From positions 1,997 to 65,996 of the forward strand of contig CAZQNQ010000006.1 in NCBI GenBank assembly GCA_964594985.1: 64,000 bases of DNA, read 5' to 3'. Of this stretch, positions 3,668-11,332 are shown one piece after another; position 1 is the first letter of the stretch, and each line of letters begins with the position of its first letter. Below the pieces are notes generated by a model. It saw only the letters and a program-made list of their open reading frames with translations. It ran no database searches and was not told where the DNA came from. The stretch is from an uncultured Bifidobacterium sp. GTDB lineage: Bacteria > Verrucomicrobiota > Verrucomicrobiia > Limisphaerales > JADLHS01. The position numbers and the translations under genes are program-made.

Positions 3668-5218
3668 ATGAGCGTTGTGATGAATCGAGATCGGGAAAGC
3701 GGGACCGTTGCCCGAAGCGGAAGCCGCGCGAAGTTTTTCGGCTTCGGGGTGCGGCTTTGGTCGCTGGCGTTGTTGCTCGGGCTGGGATTGTCCGGCAACG
3801 CCGCAGTCTATCACGTGGACAGCCAGAACGGCGATGACGCGCGCGACGGCACTTCCGCCGGACAAGCTTGGAAAACTCTGGAGCGCGTGAATGCCCGTGT
3901 CTTCCAGCCCGGCGACCAATTACTCTTCAAATCCGGATCGCGCTTCACCGGGCAACTCCGTCCACAAGGTTCGGGTAAACTGGATGGCGATAAACCCCTG
4001 CCCATCACCATCGGCAAATACGGCGACGGGCCGAAGCCGCGCATTGACGGCGAAGGAAAGTTTCTCGACACGTTGCTACTGCGGAATGTCGAGTTTTGGG
4101 AGGTCAGCGATCTGGAAATCACCAACCTCGGCACAAACCGCGTTCCCTGGCGCACCGGCGTACGCATCGTCTCTGACGGTTTCGGAAAAATGCGGCACAT
4201 CCATTTGCGCAATCTATTCGTGCATGACGTGAACGGCGACTTGCGCAAAGAGCAGGAGGGCTGCGGCATTTATTTCGAGAGTCGGGGCCGCAATCAATCG
4301 CACTTCGATGACCTGCGCATCGAGAACTGTCACGTCGTCCGCACCGACCGCAACGGCATCTGTCAGCGCGGCGGTCGCACCCGCAGTCTGCGGGTGGTGA
4401 TTCGCGGCAATCTCCTCGAAGACATCGGCGGCGACGGCATCAAAATCTGGGGCAGCAACGGCGCGCTTGTCGAACACAACGCGATTCGTGGCGGTCGGAC
4501 GCGCTGCAACGATTACGCCGCCGGCATCTGGCCGTTCGACAGCGATGACACGCTCATTCAGTTCAACGAAGTTTCCGGCATGAAAGGCACGAAGGACGGG
4601 CAGGGGTTTGATTCGGATTATCTCTGCCGCCGTTCCGTGTTCCAATACAACTACAGCCACGACAACGAAGGCGGCTTCATGCTCATCTGCGCGCCGGGCC
4701 ATTCCTACAACGAGGACACCGTCATCCGTTACAACATCAGCCAGAACGACGGCCTCAATTCCGCCCGCATTTTCCATATCAGCGGCGCGAAGAACACGAA
4801 GATTTACAACAACACGATCTACGTCGGTGCGAAGCAGGACTTGCCGCTGTTGCTCTGCAACGACTGGGACGGTGGCAGCGCGCGCGACACATTTTTCTAC
4901 AACAACATCTTTTATGTGGCCGGTCGCGTGACCTATGACTTCGGGAAAAGCCAGAACACCGTCTTCGAGGACAATGTTTTCTGGGGCAAACATCAGAACC
5001 CGCCGGCGGATGCGTCCGCCATCACCCACCAGCCCGCGCTCGCCAATCCCGGCAGCGGCGGGGCGGGTTTTGATTCGTTGTCCGGCTACCGGCTCCGTGA
5101 TGCCACCGCATGTCTGCCGGGGCGACTGGTCCCGGAAAACGGTGGTCGCGATTTCTTTGGTAATTCCGTTCCCGCCGATCAACCACCCTGCATCGGTGCG
5201 GCGCAGATTTACAAGTGA
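3668..5218 (+). CDS. Secreted right-handed parallel beta-helix repeat protein (pectate-lyase-fold)
   Basis: N-terminal hydrophobic signal (LWSLALLLGLGLSGNA), then YHVDSQNGDDARDGTSAGQAWKTLERVN and repeated N/G-rich beta-helix turns (IRGN, HNAIRGG, YNISQND, IYNNTIY, FYNNIFY). Confidence 0.6.
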   Translation: MSVVMNRDRESGTVARSGSRAKFFGFGVRLWSLALLLGLGLSGNAAVYHVDSQNGDDARDGTSAGQAWKTLERVNARVFQPGDQLLFKSGSRFTGQLRPQGSGKLDGDKPLPITIGKYGDGPKPRIDGEGKFLDTLLLRNVEFWEVSDLEITNLGTNRVPWRTGVRIVSDGFGKMRHIHLRNLFVHDVNGDLRKEQEGCGIYFESRGRNQSHFDDLRIENCHVVRTDRNGICQRGGRTRSLRVVIRGNLLEDIGGDGIKIWGSNGALVEHNAIRGGRTRCNDYAAGIWPFDSDDTLIQFNEVSGMKGTKDGQGFDSDYLCRRSVFQYNYSHDNEGGFMLICAPGHSYNEDTVIRYNISQNDGLNSARIFHISGAKNTKIYNNTIYVGAKQDLPLLLCNDWDGGSARDTFFYNNIFYVAGRVTYDFGKSQNTVFEDNVFWGKHQNPPADASAITHQPALANPGSGGAGFDSLSGYRLRDATACLPGRLVPENGGRDFFGNSVPADQPPCIGAAQIYK

Positions 5219-5252
5219 GGAGCGCGGCTGTGTCTGAAAGACCAGCCGCAGC
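5219..5252. repeat. REP hairpin, CAGCCGCGCTCC family
   Basis: ggagcgcggctgtgtctgaaagaccagccgcagc, immediately after the stop of the beta-helix gene. A possible terminator-like hairpin. Confidence 0.65.
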
Positions 5253-5293
5253 AAGCGGAGCAGGCGAAAGCTTCATAACCTTGCCGGACTCGT

Positions 5294-5329
5294 GTGCTGC
5301 GACTGGGGCTTTGCCCACAGTCGCGCTCC
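5294..5329. repeat. REP hairpin, CAGCCGCGCTCC family (opposite orientation)
   Basis: gtgctgcgactggggctttgcccacagtcgcgctcc. Related copies lie at 8521-8548 and 55744-55777. Confidence 0.65.
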
Positions 5330-5373
5330 GGCGACGGTTTGAACAACAACGATGCCAGCCGGTCAAATAAACC

Positions 5374-6111
5374 GTGAAAGCAACGTCAACCCAGTCTCCC
5401 GCTCCAATTCCCTTTCGCACCCGCGCCGGCCAGTATTGGCGCAAAGAAATCCGCCCGTTGCTCATTTTCGCGTTGATTCTCTTTTCCATCCGCTCCTCGC
5501 TCGCCGATTGGAACGATGTGCCGAGCGGCTCGATGCGCCCGACCATTCTCGAGGGCGACCGCATCTTCGTGAACAAACTCGCCTATGATCTCAAAGTGCC
5601 CTTCACCACCTGGCACATCGCCGAATGGGGCAATCCACAGCGTGGCGACATCGTGGTGTTCTTCTCGCCGCACGACGGCAAGCGCCTCGTCAAGCGCGTC
5701 ATCGGCCTGCCCGGCGACACCATCGAACTCCGCAACAATCAACTTGTCCTCAACGGCGCACCCGTCGAATACCAGCCCATCGCCGAGGAACTCCTGCGAT
5801 ACATTCTCGCCGCCGAACGCGAAGGCCGCGTCTTTGCCAGTGAAAAACTCCCCGGGCAGACACACGCGGTTGGTGGCTATCCCGCCGCGCCCGCGCCGCG
5901 GACCTTTGCTCCCATCGTTGTGCCGCAAGGCGAATACTTCATGATGGGCGACAACCGCGACGACAGCTTCGACTCCCGCTTCTGGGGCACGGTGAAACGC
6001 GAGAAGATCGTGGGTCGTGCCACCGCCGTGGTGCTCTCGTTCGACAAGAGTAATTACTGGCTGCCGCGGTGGGGAAGGTCGTTCACTTCATTGCGAAGTG
6101 ATGGGGATTAG
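5374..6111 (+). CDS. lepB: Signal peptidase I
   Basis: Catalytic Ser box SGSMRPTILEGD, Lys box KRVIGLPGD, and GDNRDDSFDSRFWG, all signature boxes of type I signal peptidases. GTG start per the ORF track. Confidence 0.85.
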   Translation: MKATSTQSPAPIPFRTRAGQYWRKEIRPLLIFALILFSIRSSLADWNDVPSGSMRPTILEGDRIFVNKLAYDLKVPFTTWHIAEWGNPQRGDIVVFFSPHDGKRLVKRVIGLPGDTIELRNNQLVLNGAPVEYQPIAEELLRYILAAEREGRVFASEKLPGQTHAVGGYPAAPAPRTFAPIVVPQGEYFMMGDNRDDSFDSRFWGTVKREKIVGRATAVVLSFDKSNYWLPRWGRSFTSLRSDGD

Positions 6112-6113
6112 CA

Positions 6114-6626
6114 TCATTTTGAGGGAGGGTTGTCTTCACCCAAGCCATCCTCAAAGTCTCGCTGCCCGTTTGGGTCGAAGAAGGCTCGATCAAATCCATC
6201 TTCAAGTTTGATCGGCTTGAACAGCACCTCTCCAGAATCTTTGAAGGCTTTGCAATACGCGAAGAATGTATCGTGGTTGTCAGTGATGACAAACTCAGCA
6301 TCAATCACCACAGCCCGAGCTATAATTTTGATGTCGTCTTTCAACGCATCGCGCTCCACACCTTTTGGACGCAGGCGTTTCCAATCAAGCTTTGCGGCCT
6401 TCTGAGCATCTTCCCAGTTGAATGGAAGCACAACACAACAGCGTAAAATATCCGCCGGGATTTCCTGCTTCACGCAGAATTCGGACGCGACAATCGTGGA
6501 AAGATAGATGGGAATCTGGCTCTCCAGAAAGTGTCTCCAGTAACGGCGCGCGGCTTCATTGTGCTTCCGATTGGAATCGGCGAGCGTGATGAAGAAGCTT
6601 GTGTCAATAAGAACTCCAGCAGCCAT
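6114..6626 (-). CDS. PIN-domain nuclease (VapC-like) with an acidic C-terminal extension
   Basis: Subset of ORF 6114..6674, starting at MAAGVLIDTSFF (ATG at 6626). Acidic residues sit at PIN-like spacing: LIDTS, ASEF, VITDNHD. The start lies 1 nt after the stop of the upstream gene (TAAAATG). Local GC is about 47-50%. Confidence 0.65.
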   Translation of the reverse strand: MAAGVLIDTSFFITLADSNRKHNEAARRYWRHFLESQIPIYLSTIVASEFCVKQEIPADILRCCVVLPFNWEDAQKAAKLDWKRLRPKGVERDALKDDIKIIARAVVIDAEFVITDNHDTFFAYCKAFKDSGEVLFKPIKLEDGFDRAFFDPNGQRDFEDGLGEDNPPSK

Positions 6627-6627
6627 T

Positions 6628-7404
6628 TTATCCTCCGCGCAAATCCCTAACCCATTTTGCTGCGTCAGGAACATCGGCCCACGCCTTGGTTCCCTTGGCT
6701 GCGAAGCGATCTAATGCGCCTTCGTCGTAGGTTGGTTGATAATCAACAAAGGTGATCAGTTGAATGCTTCGTAAATCGCCCGTGCGAAAATGTTGGTTTG
6801 CCCGCACGTGCAGGAGTGCTTTGTGGTAAAGCCGGTTCTCAATTTGTTCGCGCAGGTATCCTTGCGAAGCACCGATGATCAGTGTTTTGCCGGTGCGATC
6901 TAGTTTCAGGTGAATGTTTGCCTTATGGGTGCCCCCCATGTCCACGACTTGCCCGAACAGGTATTTTTCTACCGCGACCCACGGGACGATTTCACCAATC
7001 CGGTAGTCGGTTTTTTGACTGATCCGAAAGCCCGGCAGGTTTTCACACTTCGAGCGAACCTCATAGTCCAGTTCAGGATTGTCCTTTGTGCGTGACTGCC
7101 ATTTTTGAATGATTTCTGCGCGCTTGTAATCCAACTCGCCCAATACATCTTCTCGAGCCATCAGCTTCAGATCAGGTTCAAGGCTGGAAGCAACCACTAC
7201 CGGGAGCAGAACACGCAAGACATAGGAGCTTTTGGCAATTTCAACGTGCGCCTGGTCGAGCTTCAGTTTCTGGCTTCCGCTGATGAATGCCTCGACTTGC
7301 TGGTTGAACTCGTTGAACCGGGACAGGCCAATCGTCTTTGGAGTGATTTCTACTCCTTCCACTTTGCCGTGTAAGACAAACTCCATGGATGCCGCTTCGT
7401 TCAT
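6628..7404 (-). CDS. Hypothetical protein (258 aa), upstream partner of the PIN nuclease
   Basis: Long ORF with protein-like composition, tightly coupled to the PIN gene. I recognise no domain. It is far larger than classical VapB antitoxins. Confidence 0.5.
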   Translation of the reverse strand: MNEAASMEFVLHGKVEGVEITPKTIGLSRFNEFNQQVEAFISGSQKLKLDQAHVEIAKSSYVLRVLLPVVVASSLEPDLKLMAREDVLGELDYKRAEIIQKWQSRTKDNPELDYEVRSKCENLPGFRISQKTDYRIGEIVPWVAVEKYLFGQVVDMGGTHKANIHLKLDRTGKTLIIGASQGYLREQIENRLYHKALLHVRANQHFRTGDLRSIQLITFVDYQPTYDEGALDRFAAKGTKAWADVPDAAKWVRDLRGG

Positions 7405-7465
7405 TGCCTGCTCGCTGCCATACAGTAGCTCATTAACGGGAGTATTCGCAATAGCCGGCTACGAA

Positions 7466-7538
7466 CCAAACAAATCCATCTGCGGGGGCGGGGCGAGGTG
7501 CTTGAGTTTGTCGCGCTCCTGCTGGCGGCGCGGTTGGC
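7466..7538. repeat. Direct-repeat copy of the mutS 3-prime terminus (73 bp, 2 mismatches versus 8559-8631)
   Basis: ccaaacaaatccatctgcgggggcggggcgaggtgcttgagtttgtcgcgctcctgctggcggcgcggttggc compared with the true mutS end. On the minus strand it would encode QPRRQQERDKLKHLAPPPQMDLFGS. Confidence 0.85.
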
Positions 7539-7539
7539 C

Positions 7540-7794
7540 TTATCCGCCTGCCAATGTCTCCAACCGTTTCAGGGAAAAGACATCGCCACCCCGCAGGAAG
7601 AAGCGCGTGATTTGCTCGCGCAACTGGCGGTAGAGCGCGGGGTCGGTTTGCGCGAGTTGTACCGGCACGTCGCGCCGGGCGAAACGCACGAGCGCGGCGA
7701 GTTCGGCCCAGCGTTTTTGTTGGAAATAAACATCCACTTGGGCCGGGTCGGCCAGCAGGGCGCGGGCGGTCAATTCTTCTTCGCGGGCATTCAT
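7540..7794 (-). CDS. Hypothetical small protein (84 aa)
   Basis: ORF starting 3 nt after the stop of the NTase-fold gene. Its stop codon lies immediately before, and in frame with, a duplicated mutS tail. It contains no His residue, so it is not a HEPN RX4-6H protein. Confidence 0.4.
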   Translation of the reverse strand: MNAREEELTARALLADPAQVDVYFQQKRWAELAALVRFARRDVPVQLAQTDPALYRQLREQITRFFLRGGDVFSLKRLETLAGG

Positions 7795-7796
7795 GT

Positions 7797-8345
7797 TCAG
7801 ATTTCCAGCACGTCGAGATAGACGAGATTTTCGGTGGCGCGTTCGCGGGCTTGGGAATTGAATTCAACAATAATGCTCCGCACTCGTTGCAAGTCCGGGC
7901 GATGGCGGCTCAACAAAAAACGGATGTCGCTCAAGTCTTTTGGTTCCGCACGAATGAGCTTGGCGGCGATGAGATTTTCCACCGGCGGTCGAAAGAGATG
8001 CAATCGCCCCATGCGTTCTATCAACATGGGGTCAAAGTTTCCCAGTTGCGTCAATCCTGGCTCGATGAGTTGCAGATACGGGCGGTCGGGTTCGAGCGTC
8101 TGTTTGGGATCGAAGAGCAGGCCGATTTTTTCGGCTGCGGTCTTGAGTTCAAGCCGGTCGTAGTCACTCGCGGGTTTCCAGATGTCGAGGTCGGCGGAAG
8201 TGCGTCCATCCATGCCCCCAAACAAGCAAGCCGCCGAACCGATGAGACAGAGCCGGAGCGGAGAACCTTCTTTGCCGAGAGCTTGAGCGAGATCAGCCAA
8301 CACCGCCGACCACGCTTCGCCGTCGAGTTGTAGCTTCAAGGACAT
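7797..8345 (-). CDS. Nucleotidyltransferase-fold protein (minimal NTase / DUF6036-like)
   Basis: LIGSAACLFGGMDGRTSADLDIW matches the G-S...D-x-D signature of minimal nucleotidyltransferases. 182 aa. Confidence 0.55.
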   Translation of the reverse strand: MSLKLQLDGEAWSAVLADLAQALGKEGSPLRLCLIGSAACLFGGMDGRTSADLDIWKPASDYDRLELKTAAEKIGLLFDPKQTLEPDRPYLQLIEPGLTQLGNFDPMLIERMGRLHLFRPPVENLIAAKLIRAEPKDLSDIRFLLSRHRPDLQRVRSIIVEFNSQARERATENLVYLDVLEI

Positions 8346-8421
8346 TCAGTACGCGGTGGCATCATAACCAAAACTCGGTGGCGAATCAAACCAACAAAGA
8401 GGCCCGCACCTGTTGCTTGAT

Positions 8422-8441
8422 CCAAACAAATCCATCTGCGG
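8422..8441. repeat. Partial (20 bp) third copy of the mutS 3-prime terminus
   Basis: ccaaacaaatccatctgcgg is identical to the first 20 nt of the copies at 7466 and 8559. Confidence 0.6.
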
Positions 8442-8520
8442 CGCACGGACGGTCCCCGTCCGCAGCGGGTGAAGGGGGAAGTGGGTTTATGGATTATCCT
8501 ACATCTTTCTGTCTGGCGAC

Positions 8521-8548
8521 GCGCTGCGGCTGAGGACAGCCGCGCTCC
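8521..8548. repeat. REP hairpin, CAGCCGCGCTCC family
   Basis: gcgctgcggctgaggacagccgcgctcc, just downstream of the mutS stop. Confidence 0.6.
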
Positions 8549-8554
8549 AGCGAT

Positions 8555-11332
8555 TTACCCAAACAAATCCATCTGCGGGGGCGGGGCGAGTTGCTTGAGC
8601 TTGTCGCGCTCCTGCTGGCGGCGCGGTTGGCGGACGTTGCCTTCGGGAGTGAGTTCGGATTCTTCGAGGTTCACCAGGATTTGCTTCGCGCGTTCCAACA
8701 CTTCCTTCGGCACGCCGGCGAGACGCGCGACCTGGATGCCGTAGCTCTTGTCCGTGCCGCCTGCGACGATTTTGCGCAGGAAGACAATCGCGTCGTGCCA
8801 CTCGCGCACGGCGACATTGAAGTTCTTGATACGCGGCAGGCGTTGGGCGAGTTCGGTCAGTTCGTGATAGTGCGTGGCGAACAGGGTTTTCGCGCCAACG
8901 ATGTTGTGCAGGTATTCCACGATGCTCCACGCGAGGCTGAGGCCGTCGAACGTGCTGGTGCCGCGGCCGATTTCGTCCAAAATGATGAGGCTGCGCGGCG
9001 TGGCGTTGTTGAGGATGTTGGCCGTTTCGCTCATCTCGACCATGAAGGTGGATTGCCCGCGCGCCAGATCGTCGCTCGCGCCGATGCGGGTGAAGATGCG
9101 GTCCACGAGGTCAATGCGCGCTTCCTTCGCGGGAATGAAACTCCCGGTGTGCGCGAGCAATGTGAGTAGCGCCACCTGCCGGATATAGGTGGATTTACCC
9201 GCCATGTTCGGCCCGGTGATGAGGGCGATTTGCGGAGCGCCGAGCACTGCCTTGGCCTGTTTCGCGTCGCCTTCGGTTCGAGCCGAGGTGGTGCTCGGCG
9301 CTCCGCTGGAAAGCACCGCATCATTCGGCACGAAGCGTTCGTCCACCAAGCTTTGTTCCAACACCGGATGGCGGCCATCGGTGATTTGCAGCTCACCTTC
9401 GTCGCTGACTTGGGGGCGGCAATAGTCGTGCAATCGCGCGATCTCGGCGAAGGAGGCGAGCGCGTCGAGTTGGGCGAGGGCGGACGCGGTCTGCTGGATT
9501 TTGGCGAGTTGGCCGAGGACTTCTTCGCGGAGGCGTTGGAAGAGTTCGTATTCCAACTTCACGCTGCGTTCTTCCGCGCCGAGGATCTTGCCTTCCATGT
9601 CTTTCAATTCGGGCGTGATGAAGCGCTCGCCGTTGGCGACGGTCTGCTTGCGGATGTAATGCGGCGGGACTTTGTCGAGGTTCGACTTGGTGACTTCGAT
9701 GTAATAACCGAAGACGGAATTGAACCGCACTTTGAGCGAGCTGATGCCAGTGCGTTCGATTTCATCCTGCTGCAACTTGGCGAGCCAATCCTTGCCGCCG
9801 CGTTGGGCGTTGCGGAGTTCGTCGAGGTCGGGGCTGAAACCGTCGCGGATCATCCCGCCTTCCTTCACGGCGAGCGGCGGTTCGTCCACGATGGCGCGAC
9901 CGATCAGCTCGACGAGGTCGGGCGATTCGGAGAGTTGCGCGGTGAGGTTGGCGAGTAACGAGTTGCCCCTCACCCCGTCCCTCTCCCCATCCGATGGGGA
10001 GAGGGTGGCCGATAGGCCGGGTGAGGGGGTGTTCAAATTCTCGCCTGTAGCAGCCGACGTGAGGAGGCTCTGACTTCCTGCTTCCGAATTGAGCCTCCTT
10101 ACGGCGGCTGCTACGAAGGAGGAGAGGGTTTGCCGCAGGGCGGGAATCTGTTCCAGCGCCTGGCGCAGCACGACAAGGTCGCGCGCGTTGCCGCTGCCGG
10201 TGCTGAGGCGGCCCAGCGTGCGTTCAAGGTCTCGGACTTGCGTGAGTTGCGCGCGGAATGTGTCGAGGCTGGTGGAGTTTTCGATGAACGTCGCAACAGT
10301 TTCCTGACGTTGGCGAATGGGTTCAACGGCGGCGAGCGGTTGGGAAAGCCAGTTGCGCAGGAGCCGCGCGCCCATCGGCGTGGCGGTTTTGTTCAACGCG
10401 CCGTAAAGACAGGCGTTGCGCGGGGCGTCGCGGTGTTGTGGTTCGAGGATTTCGAGATGTCGTAGCGTGGTGTAGTCAAGCGCGAGGAAGTCCGTACGTT
10501 GATAGAATGACAGGCGCGTGAGGTGTTTCACGTCGCGCCGGAGATTTTGCGTGAGGTAATGCAGCGCGCCGCCCGCCGCGCCGATGGCGGCAGTGCGATC
10601 CTTCAACCCGAAGCCGTCGAGCGAGGCGACCTTGAAATGCTCGCGCACGGTGAATACGGCGGTCTGTGGGGCGAAGGTCCAGTCGTCGTAAGCGCTGACA
10701 GTCCAGCCCCGTCCTGTGGCTGCGCTCGTGAGAGCGCGGCTGACACTTTTTGGATCAGCCGTGTTCTCACGAACACAGCCACAGAGCAAGTCGCGGAGCG
10801 CAACGGCTTCCATCGGATGCACGATCTCGGCGGGGCGAAGGCGTTCGAGTTCGGTGAGGAGCGCGGCTTCGGCTTCGACTTCGGTGGTGAGGAAATCGCC
10901 AGTGGTCAAATCCACGAGCGCAAGGCCGAAGGTTTTCCCGGTGCTGACTACTGCGGCGAGGAAGTTGTTGCGCTCGGCGACAAGCATCCGTTCATCGAAG
11001 TGCGTGCCGGGGGAAAGGATTTGCGTGACCTCGCGATTGACGAGTTTGCCGGGCTTGGCTTCCTCGGTCTGCTCGCAGATGGCGACCTTGCGTCCGGCTT
11101 TGAGCAGGCGACTGATGTAATTGTTGGCCGCGTGATACGGCAGGCCGCACATCGGGATGCCGTTGCGGGCGGTGAGAGCGAGATTGATCAATTGAGAGGC
11201 GACCTGCGCGTCCTCAAAGAACATCTCGTAGAAATCGCCGAGGCGGAAGAGCAGGAGCGCGTCTTTGGGCAGTTCGCTTTTGATGCGGCGATACTGCGCC
11301 ATCATGGGAGTGAGTTGCGCTTCGGCAGACAT
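8555..11332 (-). CDS. mutS: DNA mismatch repair protein MutS
   Basis: N-terminal TPMMAQYRRIK...FYRLGDFYEMFFEDA-type mismatch-binding motif, Walker A GPNMAGKST, DEIGRGTSTFDG and FATHYHELT. It is 925 aa, longer than typical MutS, because of in-frame repeat insertions (see the repeat features). Confidence 0.95.
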   Translation of the reverse strand: MSAEAQLTPMMAQYRRIKSELPKDALLLFRLGDFYEMFFEDAQVASQLINLALTARNGIPMCGLPYHAANNYISRLLKAGRKVAICEQTEEAKPGKLVNREVTQILSPGTHFDERMLVAERNNFLAAVVSTGKTFGLALVDLTTGDFLTTEVEAEAALLTELERLRPAEIVHPMEAVALRDLLCGCVRENTADPKSVSRALTSAATGRGWTVSAYDDWTFAPQTAVFTVREHFKVASLDGFGLKDRTAAIGAAGGALHYLTQNLRRDVKHLTRLSFYQRTDFLALDYTTLRHLEILEPQHRDAPRNACLYGALNKTATPMGARLLRNWLSQPLAAVEPIRQRQETVATFIENSTSLDTFRAQLTQVRDLERTLGRLSTGSGNARDLVVLRQALEQIPALRQTLSSFVAAAVRRLNSEAGSQSLLTSAATGENLNTPSPGLSATLSPSDGERDGVRGNSLLANLTAQLSESPDLVELIGRAIVDEPPLAVKEGGMIRDGFSPDLDELRNAQRGGKDWLAKLQQDEIERTGISSLKVRFNSVFGYYIEVTKSNLDKVPPHYIRKQTVANGERFITPELKDMEGKILGAEERSVKLEYELFQRLREEVLGQLAKIQQTASALAQLDALASFAEIARLHDYCRPQVSDEGELQITDGRHPVLEQSLVDERFVPNDAVLSSGAPSTTSARTEGDAKQAKAVLGAPQIALITGPNMAGKSTYIRQVALLTLLAHTGSFIPAKEARIDLVDRIFTRIGASDDLARGQSTFMVEMSETANILNNATPRSLIILDEIGRGTSTFDGLSLAWSIVEYLHNIVGAKTLFATHYHELTELAQRLPRIKNFNVAVREWHDAIVFLRKIVAGGTDKSYGIQVARLAGVPKEVLERAKQILVNLEESELTPEGNVRQPRRQQERDKLKQLAPPPQMDLFG
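8559..8631. repeat. Functional mutS 3-prime terminus acting as the third direct repeat (att-like)
   Basis: Same 73-bp sequence as 7466-7538 (2 mismatches). Encodes the last about 24 codons of mutS. Confidence 0.85.
9234..9304. repeat. Palindromic element (GGAGCGCCGAGC family) inside the mutS ORF
   Basis: ggagcgccgagcac...gtgctcggcgctcc with perfect 14-nt arms. Translated within MutS as GAPSTTSARTEGDAKQAKAVLGAP. Confidence 0.8.
9966..10029. repeat. 63-64-bp palindromic element (CCCCTCACCCCG..CCCTCTCCCC family) inside the mutS ORF
   Basis: cccctcaccccgtccctctccccatccgatggggagagggtggccgataggccgggtgagggg. Near-identical copies at 21375, 37434 and 48700, plus arms of the 300-bp element. Confidence 0.85.
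10047..10114. repeat. Palindromic element (GTAGCAGCCG family) inside the mutS ORF
   Basis: gtagcagccgacgtgaggaggctc ... gagcctccttacggcggctgctac, with perfect outer 10-nt arms. Translated as ...AAAVRRLNSEAGSQSLLTSAATG. Confidence 0.75.
10714..10784. repeat. Palindromic element inside the mutS ORF
   Basis: ctgtggctg cgctcgtgaga gcgcggctga ... tcagccgtg ttctcacgaaca cagccacag, with nested perfect 9-nt and 7-nt arms. Confidence 0.7.

Follow-up and report, generated by a model that had tools for sequence, protein, structure and literature searches.

In the window, the 64-kb stretch of contig CAZQNQ010000006.1 analyzed here, a 258-residue protein that belongs to no named family (A) is encoded directly upstream of a 170-residue VapC-like PIN protein. 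We hold with moderate confidence that the two genes form an autonomous module of toxin–antitoxin type, A-PIN, which represents a widespread family without a name and has abortive infection or backup defense as its probable role. This function is inferred from comparative genomics, where one PIN subfamily is found locked to a large, conserved partner with a predicted oligonucleotide-binding (OB) fold, in about 540 clusters across several phyla, plasmids, and phages. A first-pass annotation of the sequence had proposed an atypical toxin–antitoxin or defense pair with a novel partner, and the pairing of the genes, the conservation of the PIN domain, and the defense and toxin–antitoxin contexts of the relatives support that proposal. 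The annotation had made it depend on three points: co-occurrence in other genomes, PIN catalytic residues that stand up to alignment, and the lack of a housekeeping relative of the 258-residue protein. PIN was found downstream of A in essentially every locus with room for it, the catalytic residues are present at the family level, with Asn117 in the window strain, and no family matched A. The module comprises the following features.

7404..6628, minus strand: gene A, open reading frame of 258 residues, upstream partner of the PIN gene.
6626..6114, minus strand: PIN gene, VapC-like open reading frame of 170 residues, downstream of gene A.
6624..6636, minus strand: A/PIN junction, read directly as GGAGGA (6636-6631), TAA (6630-6628), A, and ATG (6626-6624).
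7422..7451, minus strand: promoter-like element, with -35 TTGCGA (7451-7446), an 18-nucleotide spacer, and -10 TACTGT (7427-7422).
6276..6278, minus strand: PIN codon 117, AAC, which places Asn where the family has its fourth catalytic Asp, identified from alignments and metagenome contigs.

A and PIN are a conserved unit and co-occur strictly. A scan of one genome per species for A gave 46 loci, mostly from Verrucomicrobiota, Planctomycetota, and Lentisphaerota, and wherever enough sequence is available the gene directly downstream is, in essentially every case, a PIN of the same subfamily. The reciprocal search from the PIN side returned 374 matches (336 for A); the three proteins looked up each have a 258-residue gene directly upstream, and every intact PIN of the subfamily that was examined follows an A gene. 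Identity to the window copy, compared locus by locus, is correlated between A and PIN (r = 0.92). Distant homologs of A, at 28–32% identity and including members of other phyla, keep a PIN partner in low-GC (guanine plus cytosine) contigs, in a Mu-like element, in phage contigs, and on a Bordetella bronchiseptica plasmid, the latter being the single A match in the plasmid collection. Alignment of three of these distant partners to the PIN profile with hhalign gave E-values of 2.5e-18, 5.5e-28, and 6.7e-14, and in the distant locus L055 the downstream open reading frame of 162 residues reaches 23.3 bits against PF01850, just below the cut-off of 23.6. A scan of viral contigs with the A alignment yielded no confirmed relative, and tblastn of a distant A member against GenBank phages yielded no match.

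Decay of the module is one-sided. At six loci (L011, L019, L035, L040, L045, and L049) PIN is absent, truncated, or frameshifted and A is intact, at two (L052 and L053) both genes are broken, and among the loci examined PIN was never intact where A was not. With A 1.5 times longer, an equal rate of decay per base would place six of six losses on the PIN side with p of about 0.004. Such a pattern would be expected if PIN were harmful without A. The asymmetry also bears on a different arrangement, in which A would be the substrate-recruiting subunit of a constitutive A-PIN enzyme that restricts foreign single-stranded DNA or RNA, or processes cellular RNA. A basic OB-fold typically belongs to a protein that binds single-stranded nucleic acid, the conservation of A equals that of PIN, and the 1:1 coupled expression with a large, structured partner is unlike VapB, all of which would suit an enzyme of two subunits. 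However, the repeated loss of PIN with A retained, and never the reverse, is hard to explain if A were functionless without PIN and PIN harmless without A; the distribution is patchy and mobile, with variable sites, and one of the two near-identical populations carries a mutation at the catalytic Asp. We consider a constitutive enzyme very unlikely.

Some of the loci that carry A without PIN have a gene order of their own. In L045 (6001-6783) gene A is found without PIN, and in L049 (6001-10045) it stands alone between hsdS and hsdR. In L019 (5700-8464) A is followed by an open reading frame of 153 residues and another of 413 residues, the latter with an HELGH motif and no Pfam match, which may be an alternative effector or unrelated neighbors.

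The layout of the two genes is compatible with the toxin–antitoxin reading. Both minus-strand open reading frames and the TAAAATG junction formed by the stop of A and the start of PIN, as described in the first-pass annotation, were confirmed. The junction, GGAGGATAAAATG, has the antitoxin-first, coupled bicistronic layout of VapBC, and the last two Gly codons of gene A constitute a perfect Shine–Dalgarno sequence for PIN, whose translation is thereby coupled to that of A. In relatives, the stop and start overlap as TAATG or TGATG or are separated by 0–6 nucleotides (range -4 to +6 nucleotides). A mechanical list of open reading frames contains a longer PIN frame of 186 residues that starts from ATG 6674. 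Since the homologs all begin at the MAAGV position, ATG 6626, and not 6674, is the real start of PIN.

The drop in GC content that had been noted for the pair was also borne out: the values lie at 0.49–0.515 (6001-7400), compared with about 0.6 in the flanking lepB and mutS genes, and the 0.503 of the module is the minimum of all 1291-bp segments across the 64 kb (mean 0.608, standard deviation 0.023). Upstream of A, the module has its own promoter-like element, with 17 nucleotides between the -10 box (7427-7422) and the ATG of A. Among 12 stand-alone loci with differing contexts, a comparative alignment inspected by eye shows the pattern TTGCnn-N17/18-TAnnnT at a fixed distance ahead of A in 11. 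A consensus scan called no promoter in front of A, the element at 7422..7451 included, and no terminator. Downstream, PIN and lepB converge, with 2 nucleotides between their stop codons (6109-6116) and no terminator-like hairpin in the gap, and an Rfam scan of positions 5000-9500 of the window gave no match.

The PIN protein of the window matches PF01850 with an E-value of 5.5e-6 and 27.4 bits, above the cut-off, and so do 29 of 29 PIN relatives from the loci. Its AlphaFold2 model has a predicted local distance difference test score (pLDDT) of 83.4 and a predicted template modeling score (pTM) of 0.79. The best Foldseek matches of this model are VapC toxins, with E-values of 1e-5 to 1e-3 and template modeling (TM) scores of 0.6–0.72; the structures matched are 1y82 from P. 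furiosus, Shigella VapC (6sd6 and 3tnd), and VapC15 (4chg) and VapC20 (5wz4) from M. tuberculosis. Sequence searches of the PDB with PIN alone and with the PIN profile found nothing, and PIN is therefore placed with VapC through fold comparison only.

The acidic set of the PIN domain consists of D8, E49, D97/D98 in a KDD site, and position 117. Residues D8, E49, D97, and D98 are invariant in the family alignments; at the fourth acid, located after the strand 112–115 in a T-x-D motif, 35 of 37 sequences have Asp and the window has Asn. Of the acidic motifs listed in the first-pass annotation (LIDTS, ASEF, and VITDN), VITDN is not intact because of Asn117, and the D97/D98 site had been overlooked. 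The acidic tail of 45 residues reported there is for the most part a conserved, partly structured extension. About 30 residues of this C-terminal extension are conserved and specific to the family, with a helix at 118–131 and a strand at 137–140; residues 118–150 are modeled confidently (pLDDT 88–94 up to residue 150), and the motif IKLEDGFDRAFF..GQR is conserved and can be recognized even in the Bordetella homolog. Only residues 162–170 are modeled as disordered (pLDDT below 50). Outside the acidic set, codon 104 (6315-6317) encodes Gln in at least 90% of the family and Arg in the window, the Arg being probably common to the compost population.

Protein A belongs to a family of 336 homologous clusters in a set of 5.8 billion proteins, the closest 120 of which show 64–95% identity; an exhaustive search extends this to 540 representative clusters, with identities down to about 25%. 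Among the full-length members listed, the length is mostly about 250–275 residues. A has no match in Pfam, in NCBIfam (even at E<=1), in PADLOC-DB, or in PHROGs, and PDB sequence searches with two A profiles gave no match. A Pfam scan of 55 diverse members returned nothing meaningful, and one distant member has a weak match to phrog_19868, a family of unknown function. The earlier observation that the partner is three times the size of VapB and lacks an RHH, AbrB, or HTH motif stands: neither these domains nor Phd were found in A with Pfam and NCBIfam at E<=1, or with Pfam in the 55 diverse members. In RefSeq, both the A and the PIN genes of Bordetella are annotated as "hypothetical protein". 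None of the databases searched names the A family, and by its sequence A is a candidate new class of PIN partner.

The AlphaFold2 model of A (pLDDT 78.7, pTM 0.53) is composed of three parts: an N-terminal alpha/beta domain (about 1–130), a five-stranded b1-b2-b3-alpha-b4-b5 barrel (142–220 by DSSP, pLDDT 78–88), and a C-terminal helical tail (228–255) with two helices modeled at low confidence. The Foldseek comparison suggested in the first-pass annotation was run on this model and gave OB-fold matches for the barrel. Against the PDB, the barrel alone is matched, and all matches are OB-folds (IF1, the mitochondrial single-stranded DNA-binding protein Rim1, ExoVII, Stn1, and the anticodon-binding domain of LysRS), with probabilities of 0.96–1.0, E-values of only 5e-3 to 3e-2, and TM scores of 0.45–0.58 relative to small targets (IF1, Rim1). 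The OB segment is basic, with an isoelectric point of 9.45. According to the model, the C-terminal half of A would thus be a basic OB-fold that binds nucleic acid. Positions that are near-invariant in the broad family are G59, S60, R95, E146, G151, G157, G158, N163, H165, W242, W251, and R256, and the invariant positions concentrate in the first barrel strands and in the C-terminal tail.

Among viral models, Foldseek finds a near full-length match to an uncharacterized phage protein of 270 residues (E 5.7e-7) and another, also near full-length, to a DUF6575 phage protein (E 1.8e-6), with TM scores of 0.27–0.31 for both. A DUF6575 domain is present in one anti-phage system of E. coli (Vassallo et al. 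2022, PMC9519451). The likeness of A to DUF6575 consists of this low-TM match alone, and no A member matches DUF6575 by hidden Markov model. PADLOC, which we assume to include that system, also gave no match; we set aside a kinship of A with DUF6575 and retain the match as a lead only. The viral library further contains DNA-ligase matches, which would suggest a ligase-like enzyme (nucleotidyltransferase plus OB-fold). This candidate was rejected, as the TM scores are low, the OB part alone is covered, and no KxDG-type motif is seen by eye among the conserved alignment positions.

PIN/VapC is the most numerous toxin family in prokaryotes, and its known antitoxins are small DNA-binding proteins. 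A-PIN resembles VapBC in several respects. Its PIN fold is closest to solved VapC toxins and has the four-acid layout at the family level, though with Asn at position 117 in the window copy, the partner gene comes first, with a stop/start overlap or a spacing of few nucleotides, the module occurs among toxin–antitoxin cassettes, and orphan A survives loss of the toxin. In VapBC the antitoxin binds the toxin and blocks its active site, and expression of the toxin arrests growth; for a like relationship in A-PIN, the six loci with A intact and PIN broken or absent, with none of the opposite kind, are indirect evidence. In contrast to the antitoxins of 70–90 residues with an N-terminal DNA-binding domain (AbrB, RHH, HTH, or Phd/YefM), A has 258 residues, is modeled as an alpha/beta domain plus an OB-fold without a Pfam match, and is as conserved as the toxin. 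The PIN protein differs as well, by its conserved C-terminal extension, and 41% of the species-level loci lie in type I restriction–modification (R-M) operons. The test for a small DNA-binding antitoxin came out negative, and A-PIN is therefore not a strict member of VapBC. ShosTA is a toxin–antitoxin-like defense pair with a DprA-like antitoxin. The concept of a large nucleic-acid-binding antitoxin that doubles as a sensor of infection would be alike in A-PIN and ShosTA, and the domains on both sides are unrelated.

The contexts in which the module is found point to defense. The pair is embedded in a type I R-M operon at 19 of the 46 species-level loci, where hsdM-hsdS-A-PIN-hsdR follow one another on a single strand, the R-M genes being identified by Pfam (HsdM_N/N6_Mtase, Methylase_S, and HSDR_N/SWI2_SNF2/T1RH-like_C). 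Since hsdR starts 7–100 nucleotides after PIN on the same strand, the genes appear to be co-transcribed. Two type I architectures carry the pair, one with separate HsdM and HsdS and the other with an HsdM-S fusion, and the PIN-side search added three R-M-embedded loci (L189-L191). Other neighbors of A-PIN are DUF2130 with SIR2-HerA, a BglII R-M system, and a cluster of PLD-SNF2 helicase, DUF499, and DUF7680 genes; the module also occupies a terminal position in a Mu-like element and occurs in contigs that carry genes for a P22-type portal and polyvalent proteins. The lodging in defense contexts, chiefly between hsdS and hsdR, makes abortive infection or backup defense the most likely role.

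This recurrence makes A-PIN a candidate for a second link, independent of PrrC, between type I restriction and a suicide nuclease that cuts RNA. PrrC combines an ABC-ATPase and an anticodon-nuclease domain in one protein, is latent in complex with the R-M enzyme, and is activated by a phage anti-restriction factor. VapC-type PINs are, like PrrC, nucleases of tRNA or rRNA, which is established knowledge and is reflected in the titles of 5wz4 and 3tnd. A-PIN could then be a guardian similar to PrrC, with PIN kept latent, directly or via A, for as long as the type I R-M complex is intact. Either of two events would release it, inactivation of the enzyme by an anti-restriction factor of a phage or detection by the OB-fold of single-stranded DNA from HsdR translocation, and stand-alone copies such as that of the window would work in trans or be orphans. 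The 19 loci and L189-L191, with their co-transcribed order, are consistent with such a guardian, as are the two unrelated type I architectures that carry the pair and the retention of A alone between hsdS and hsdR in L049. In the EcoprrI operon, a type IC system, the slot between hsdS and hsdR is occupied by prrC, which likewise precedes hsdR and is co-transcribed with the hsd genes (PMC3874165; PMC12707154).

In addition to the shared position, an RNA target is probable for A-PIN, and the guardian logic is plausible. However, A-PIN consists of two proteins with a PIN nuclease and shows no sequence or fold relationship, and no homology, to PrrC or RloC (Pfam, NCBIfam, PADLOC). It also lives away from R-M systems: no R-M genes adjoin it in over half of the loci, among them the window and its whole lineage, and the 64 kb of the window contain no type I R-M (hsd) gene. 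The promoter-like element of the module argues against such a guardian as well, and the hsdS-hsdR gap holds unrelated cargo elsewhere (IS200-like Y1 transposases, an AAA_21 ATPase, and TPR/HIRAN genes), so that it may be a mere insertion hotspot. We regard a PrrC-like guardian as unlikely. A broader version, which we consider somewhat unlikely, would make A-PIN a new, widespread and self-contained "guardian" class of restriction in the hsdS-hsdR slot, with an OB-fold sensor of failed restriction or of single-stranded phage nucleic acid that releases a VapC-like tRNase or rRNase to abort infection, and with the mutS end as a second, integrase-independent landing pad. If the coupling to restriction is true, A-PIN would add a family to the defense catalogs.

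Coupling of PIN-like genes to type I R-M has been described in generic form by Matelska et al. 2017 (PMC5499597), who reported several such cases, e.g. DUF433-PIN_10 with HsdM/HsdS, in arrangements usually not conserved between close species. A-PIN differs from these cases in that one specific pair occupies the same slot in many species and in two R-M architectures. No description of the A-PIN pair was found in the literature, where this generic coupling was the only related report. The search of PADLOC-DB v2.0.0, which the first-pass annotation had recommended, gave no match for A or PIN at E<=1.

Several R-M-embedded loci have an IS200-like Y1 transposase (about 150 residues, PF01797) located 213–465 nucleotides upstream of A (L028, 5201-5656; L189, 5556-6008; L012, L014, L190, and L191); none is present in the window. 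It is possible that this transposase is a vehicle for the module. In two Akkermansiaceae loci (L038, 1584-4041; L045, 3252-5830), genes for a TPR protein, an unknown protein of 184–297 residues, and a HIRAN protein are located directly upstream of A, and in L038 this trio is inside a type I R-M operon.

Compared with relatives at a synonymous divergence (dS) of 0.7 to above 1.6, the ratio of nonsynonymous to synonymous substitution rates (dN/dS) is 0.03–0.05, with about 0.04 for A and for PIN alike. Both genes are thus under strong and equal purifying selection, which indicates that the module is maintained and that the D117N substitution is recent; the constraint on A far exceeds that on a typical antitoxin. 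The closest PIN relatives read ITDD where the window reads VITDN. In runs X5 and X7, from a compost metagenome of another study, 94–97% of the sampled words are common with the window, and their contigs differ by 6278 T>C, which yields GAC and N117D. Besides codon 117, the populations differ within the 1.3 kb of the module at one further site, which lies in A and is synonymous. That one of only two differences falls on the codon of the catalytic Asp counts, together with the one-sided decay, among the signs of a toxin and its neutralizer.

The D7N and D98N variants of VapC are catalytically inactive forms, and among the four acids of PIN domains in general, the fourth is conserved the least strictly. 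In view of the latter, we rate the toxin of the window as probably attenuated, not certainly dead. The titles of PDB entries 5ed0 and 5ecd record that VapC with D7N and D98N, affecting other active-site acids, was crystallized. D117N probably leaves the PIN of the window attenuated or dead, and the polymorphism between Asn117 and Asp117 in near-identical populations would constitute a natural active-site control.

In the mechanism that we propose for the toxin–antitoxin module, A is translated first and the translation of PIN is coupled to it. A would bind and neutralize PIN, probably via its conserved, flexible C-terminal helical tail (W242, W251, R256). PIN would be a Mg2+-dependent nuclease, most probably cleaving tRNA or rRNA by analogy with VapC. 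The OB-fold of A would bind its own operator or mRNA, establishing autoregulation; alternatively, it would sense single-stranded nucleic acid derived from phage or stress, as the trigger that releases the nuclease. The module would travel as a unit with its own promoter and lodge in defense contexts, stabilization of the surrounding DNA being a by-product.

A number of observations weigh against this interpretation. The neutralization of PIN by A, like the RNA target, the trigger, the anti-phage role, and the effect of D117N, is inferred. A evolves as slowly as PIN and is three times the size of the known VapB antitoxins, and a slow, large A would fit a structured sensor or functional subunit at least as well as an antitoxin. 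The OB-fold assignment derives from a model with a pTM of 0.53 and a Foldseek E-value of about 5e-3. Some of the broken PINs are in metagenome-assembled genomes and may be assembly errors. Without a PADLOC match, the module has no link to a validated defense system. Finally, its strong conservation beside mutS along the whole lineage is unusual for a purely selfish cassette.

In the window lineage (L009, L061-L066, and L100) the gene order is mutS-A-PIN-lepB, and A-PIN is the innermost cassette at the mutS end, beside lepB. In the relatives L111, L119, L121, and L157, mutS is directly adjacent to and convergent with lepB, with a gap of about 27 nucleotides in L119, which identifies the A-PIN module as an insertion. 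A-PIN is thus a putative mobile cassette, stand-alone here and vertically retained in this verrucomicrobial lineage. We also considered that A-PIN is tied to mismatch repair via mutS, and rejected this: only one lineage shows the adjacency, relatives have mutS directly beside lepB, and the site serves as a hotspot for cassettes in general. The following features lie at the mutS end.

7466..7538: copy of the mutS 3' end of 73 nucleotides, 97% identical, a repeat of 8559-8631 (direct repeat D1).
8559-8631, within 8417..8631 (repeat families D1 and D3): functional mutS 3' end, repeat copy 1.
8417-8441: third, partial copy of the mutS end, of 25 nucleotides.
Within 8417..8631: relic of 137 nucleotides that contains a dispersed high-copy repeat, 8446-8548.
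7540..8345, minus strand: nucleotidyltransferase cassette, not part of the module, with a DUF6036 nucleotidyltransferase of 182 residues (8345..7797) and an open reading frame of 84 residues (7794..7540).

At least 120 metagenome contigs contain the terminal 20-mer of mutS, and six of these carry two copies, 735–1603 nucleotides apart. The cassettes between copies of the mutS end are RHH plus PIN, an antitoxin plus PemK/MazF, a DUF6932 nucleotidyltransferase, DUF433 plus DUF5615/PIN_10, and two of unknown type; cassettes of this kind, the DUF6036 cassette included, are found in the window and in L077, L088, L090, L093, L124, L128, and L168 and are bounded by the last 20–73 nucleotides of mutS. 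The mutS 3' end is, by these sequences, an apparent recurrent hotspot for small cassettes of toxin–antitoxin type. In the window, no integrase or recombinase was seen beside the site, and the mutS-end copies that bound each cassette may point to an undescribed insertion mechanism.

The position of A-PIN in an array of classical toxin–antitoxin cassettes would suit a purely selfish addiction cassette, a toxin–antitoxin pair whose sole effect is to stabilize its own genes along with neighboring DNA (R-M operons, islands, plasmids), and which has no role in phage defense. The occurrence on a Bordetella plasmid, the decay asymmetry, which is typical of addiction modules, and the IS200-like transposase that adjoins the module in several loci are in agreement with this. 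However, purifying selection is strong and equal on both genes over a dS of 0.7 or more, the module shows a specific enrichment within R-M operons and next to further defense genes, and it occurs in lytic-looking phage contigs. We judge an exclusively selfish role quite unlikely and favor the toxin–antitoxin module with a role in defense.

The repeats at the mutS end also delimit the nucleotidyltransferase cassette. In L009 the mutS end is present only once and aligns to both copies of the window, and the 1093 bp between the 73-nucleotide copies are therefore an insertion. The copy at 7466..7538 is probably the displaced original mutS end and the boundary between the nucleotidyltransferase and A-PIN cassettes. 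Between the mutS stop and the nucleotidyltransferase cassette, segment 8446-8548 is single-copy in the window and reaches a depth of 88–530 in the source metagenomes, compared with 13–60 in its flanks (4–10 times). The high depth and the many contig breaks in this segment indicate a dispersed repeat of the genome or of the community. The 137-nucleotide relic shows no unusual folding (z = -1.7) and no Rfam match.

The DUF6036 nucleotidyltransferase matches PF19502 with an E-value of 6.4e-6 and has a weak PADLOC match to AbiEii (E 0.014); the open reading frame of 84 residues begins 2 nucleotides after it and has no family match. The two genes may form a toxin–antitoxin-like pair of MNT type. 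The cassette is absent in L009 and L061-L066, and L128 carries it at the mutS end with amino acid identities of 97% and 96%, beside a MutS whose C-terminus is 66% identical. The presence of a near-identical cassette next to such a divergent MutS implies horizontal, site-specific movement.

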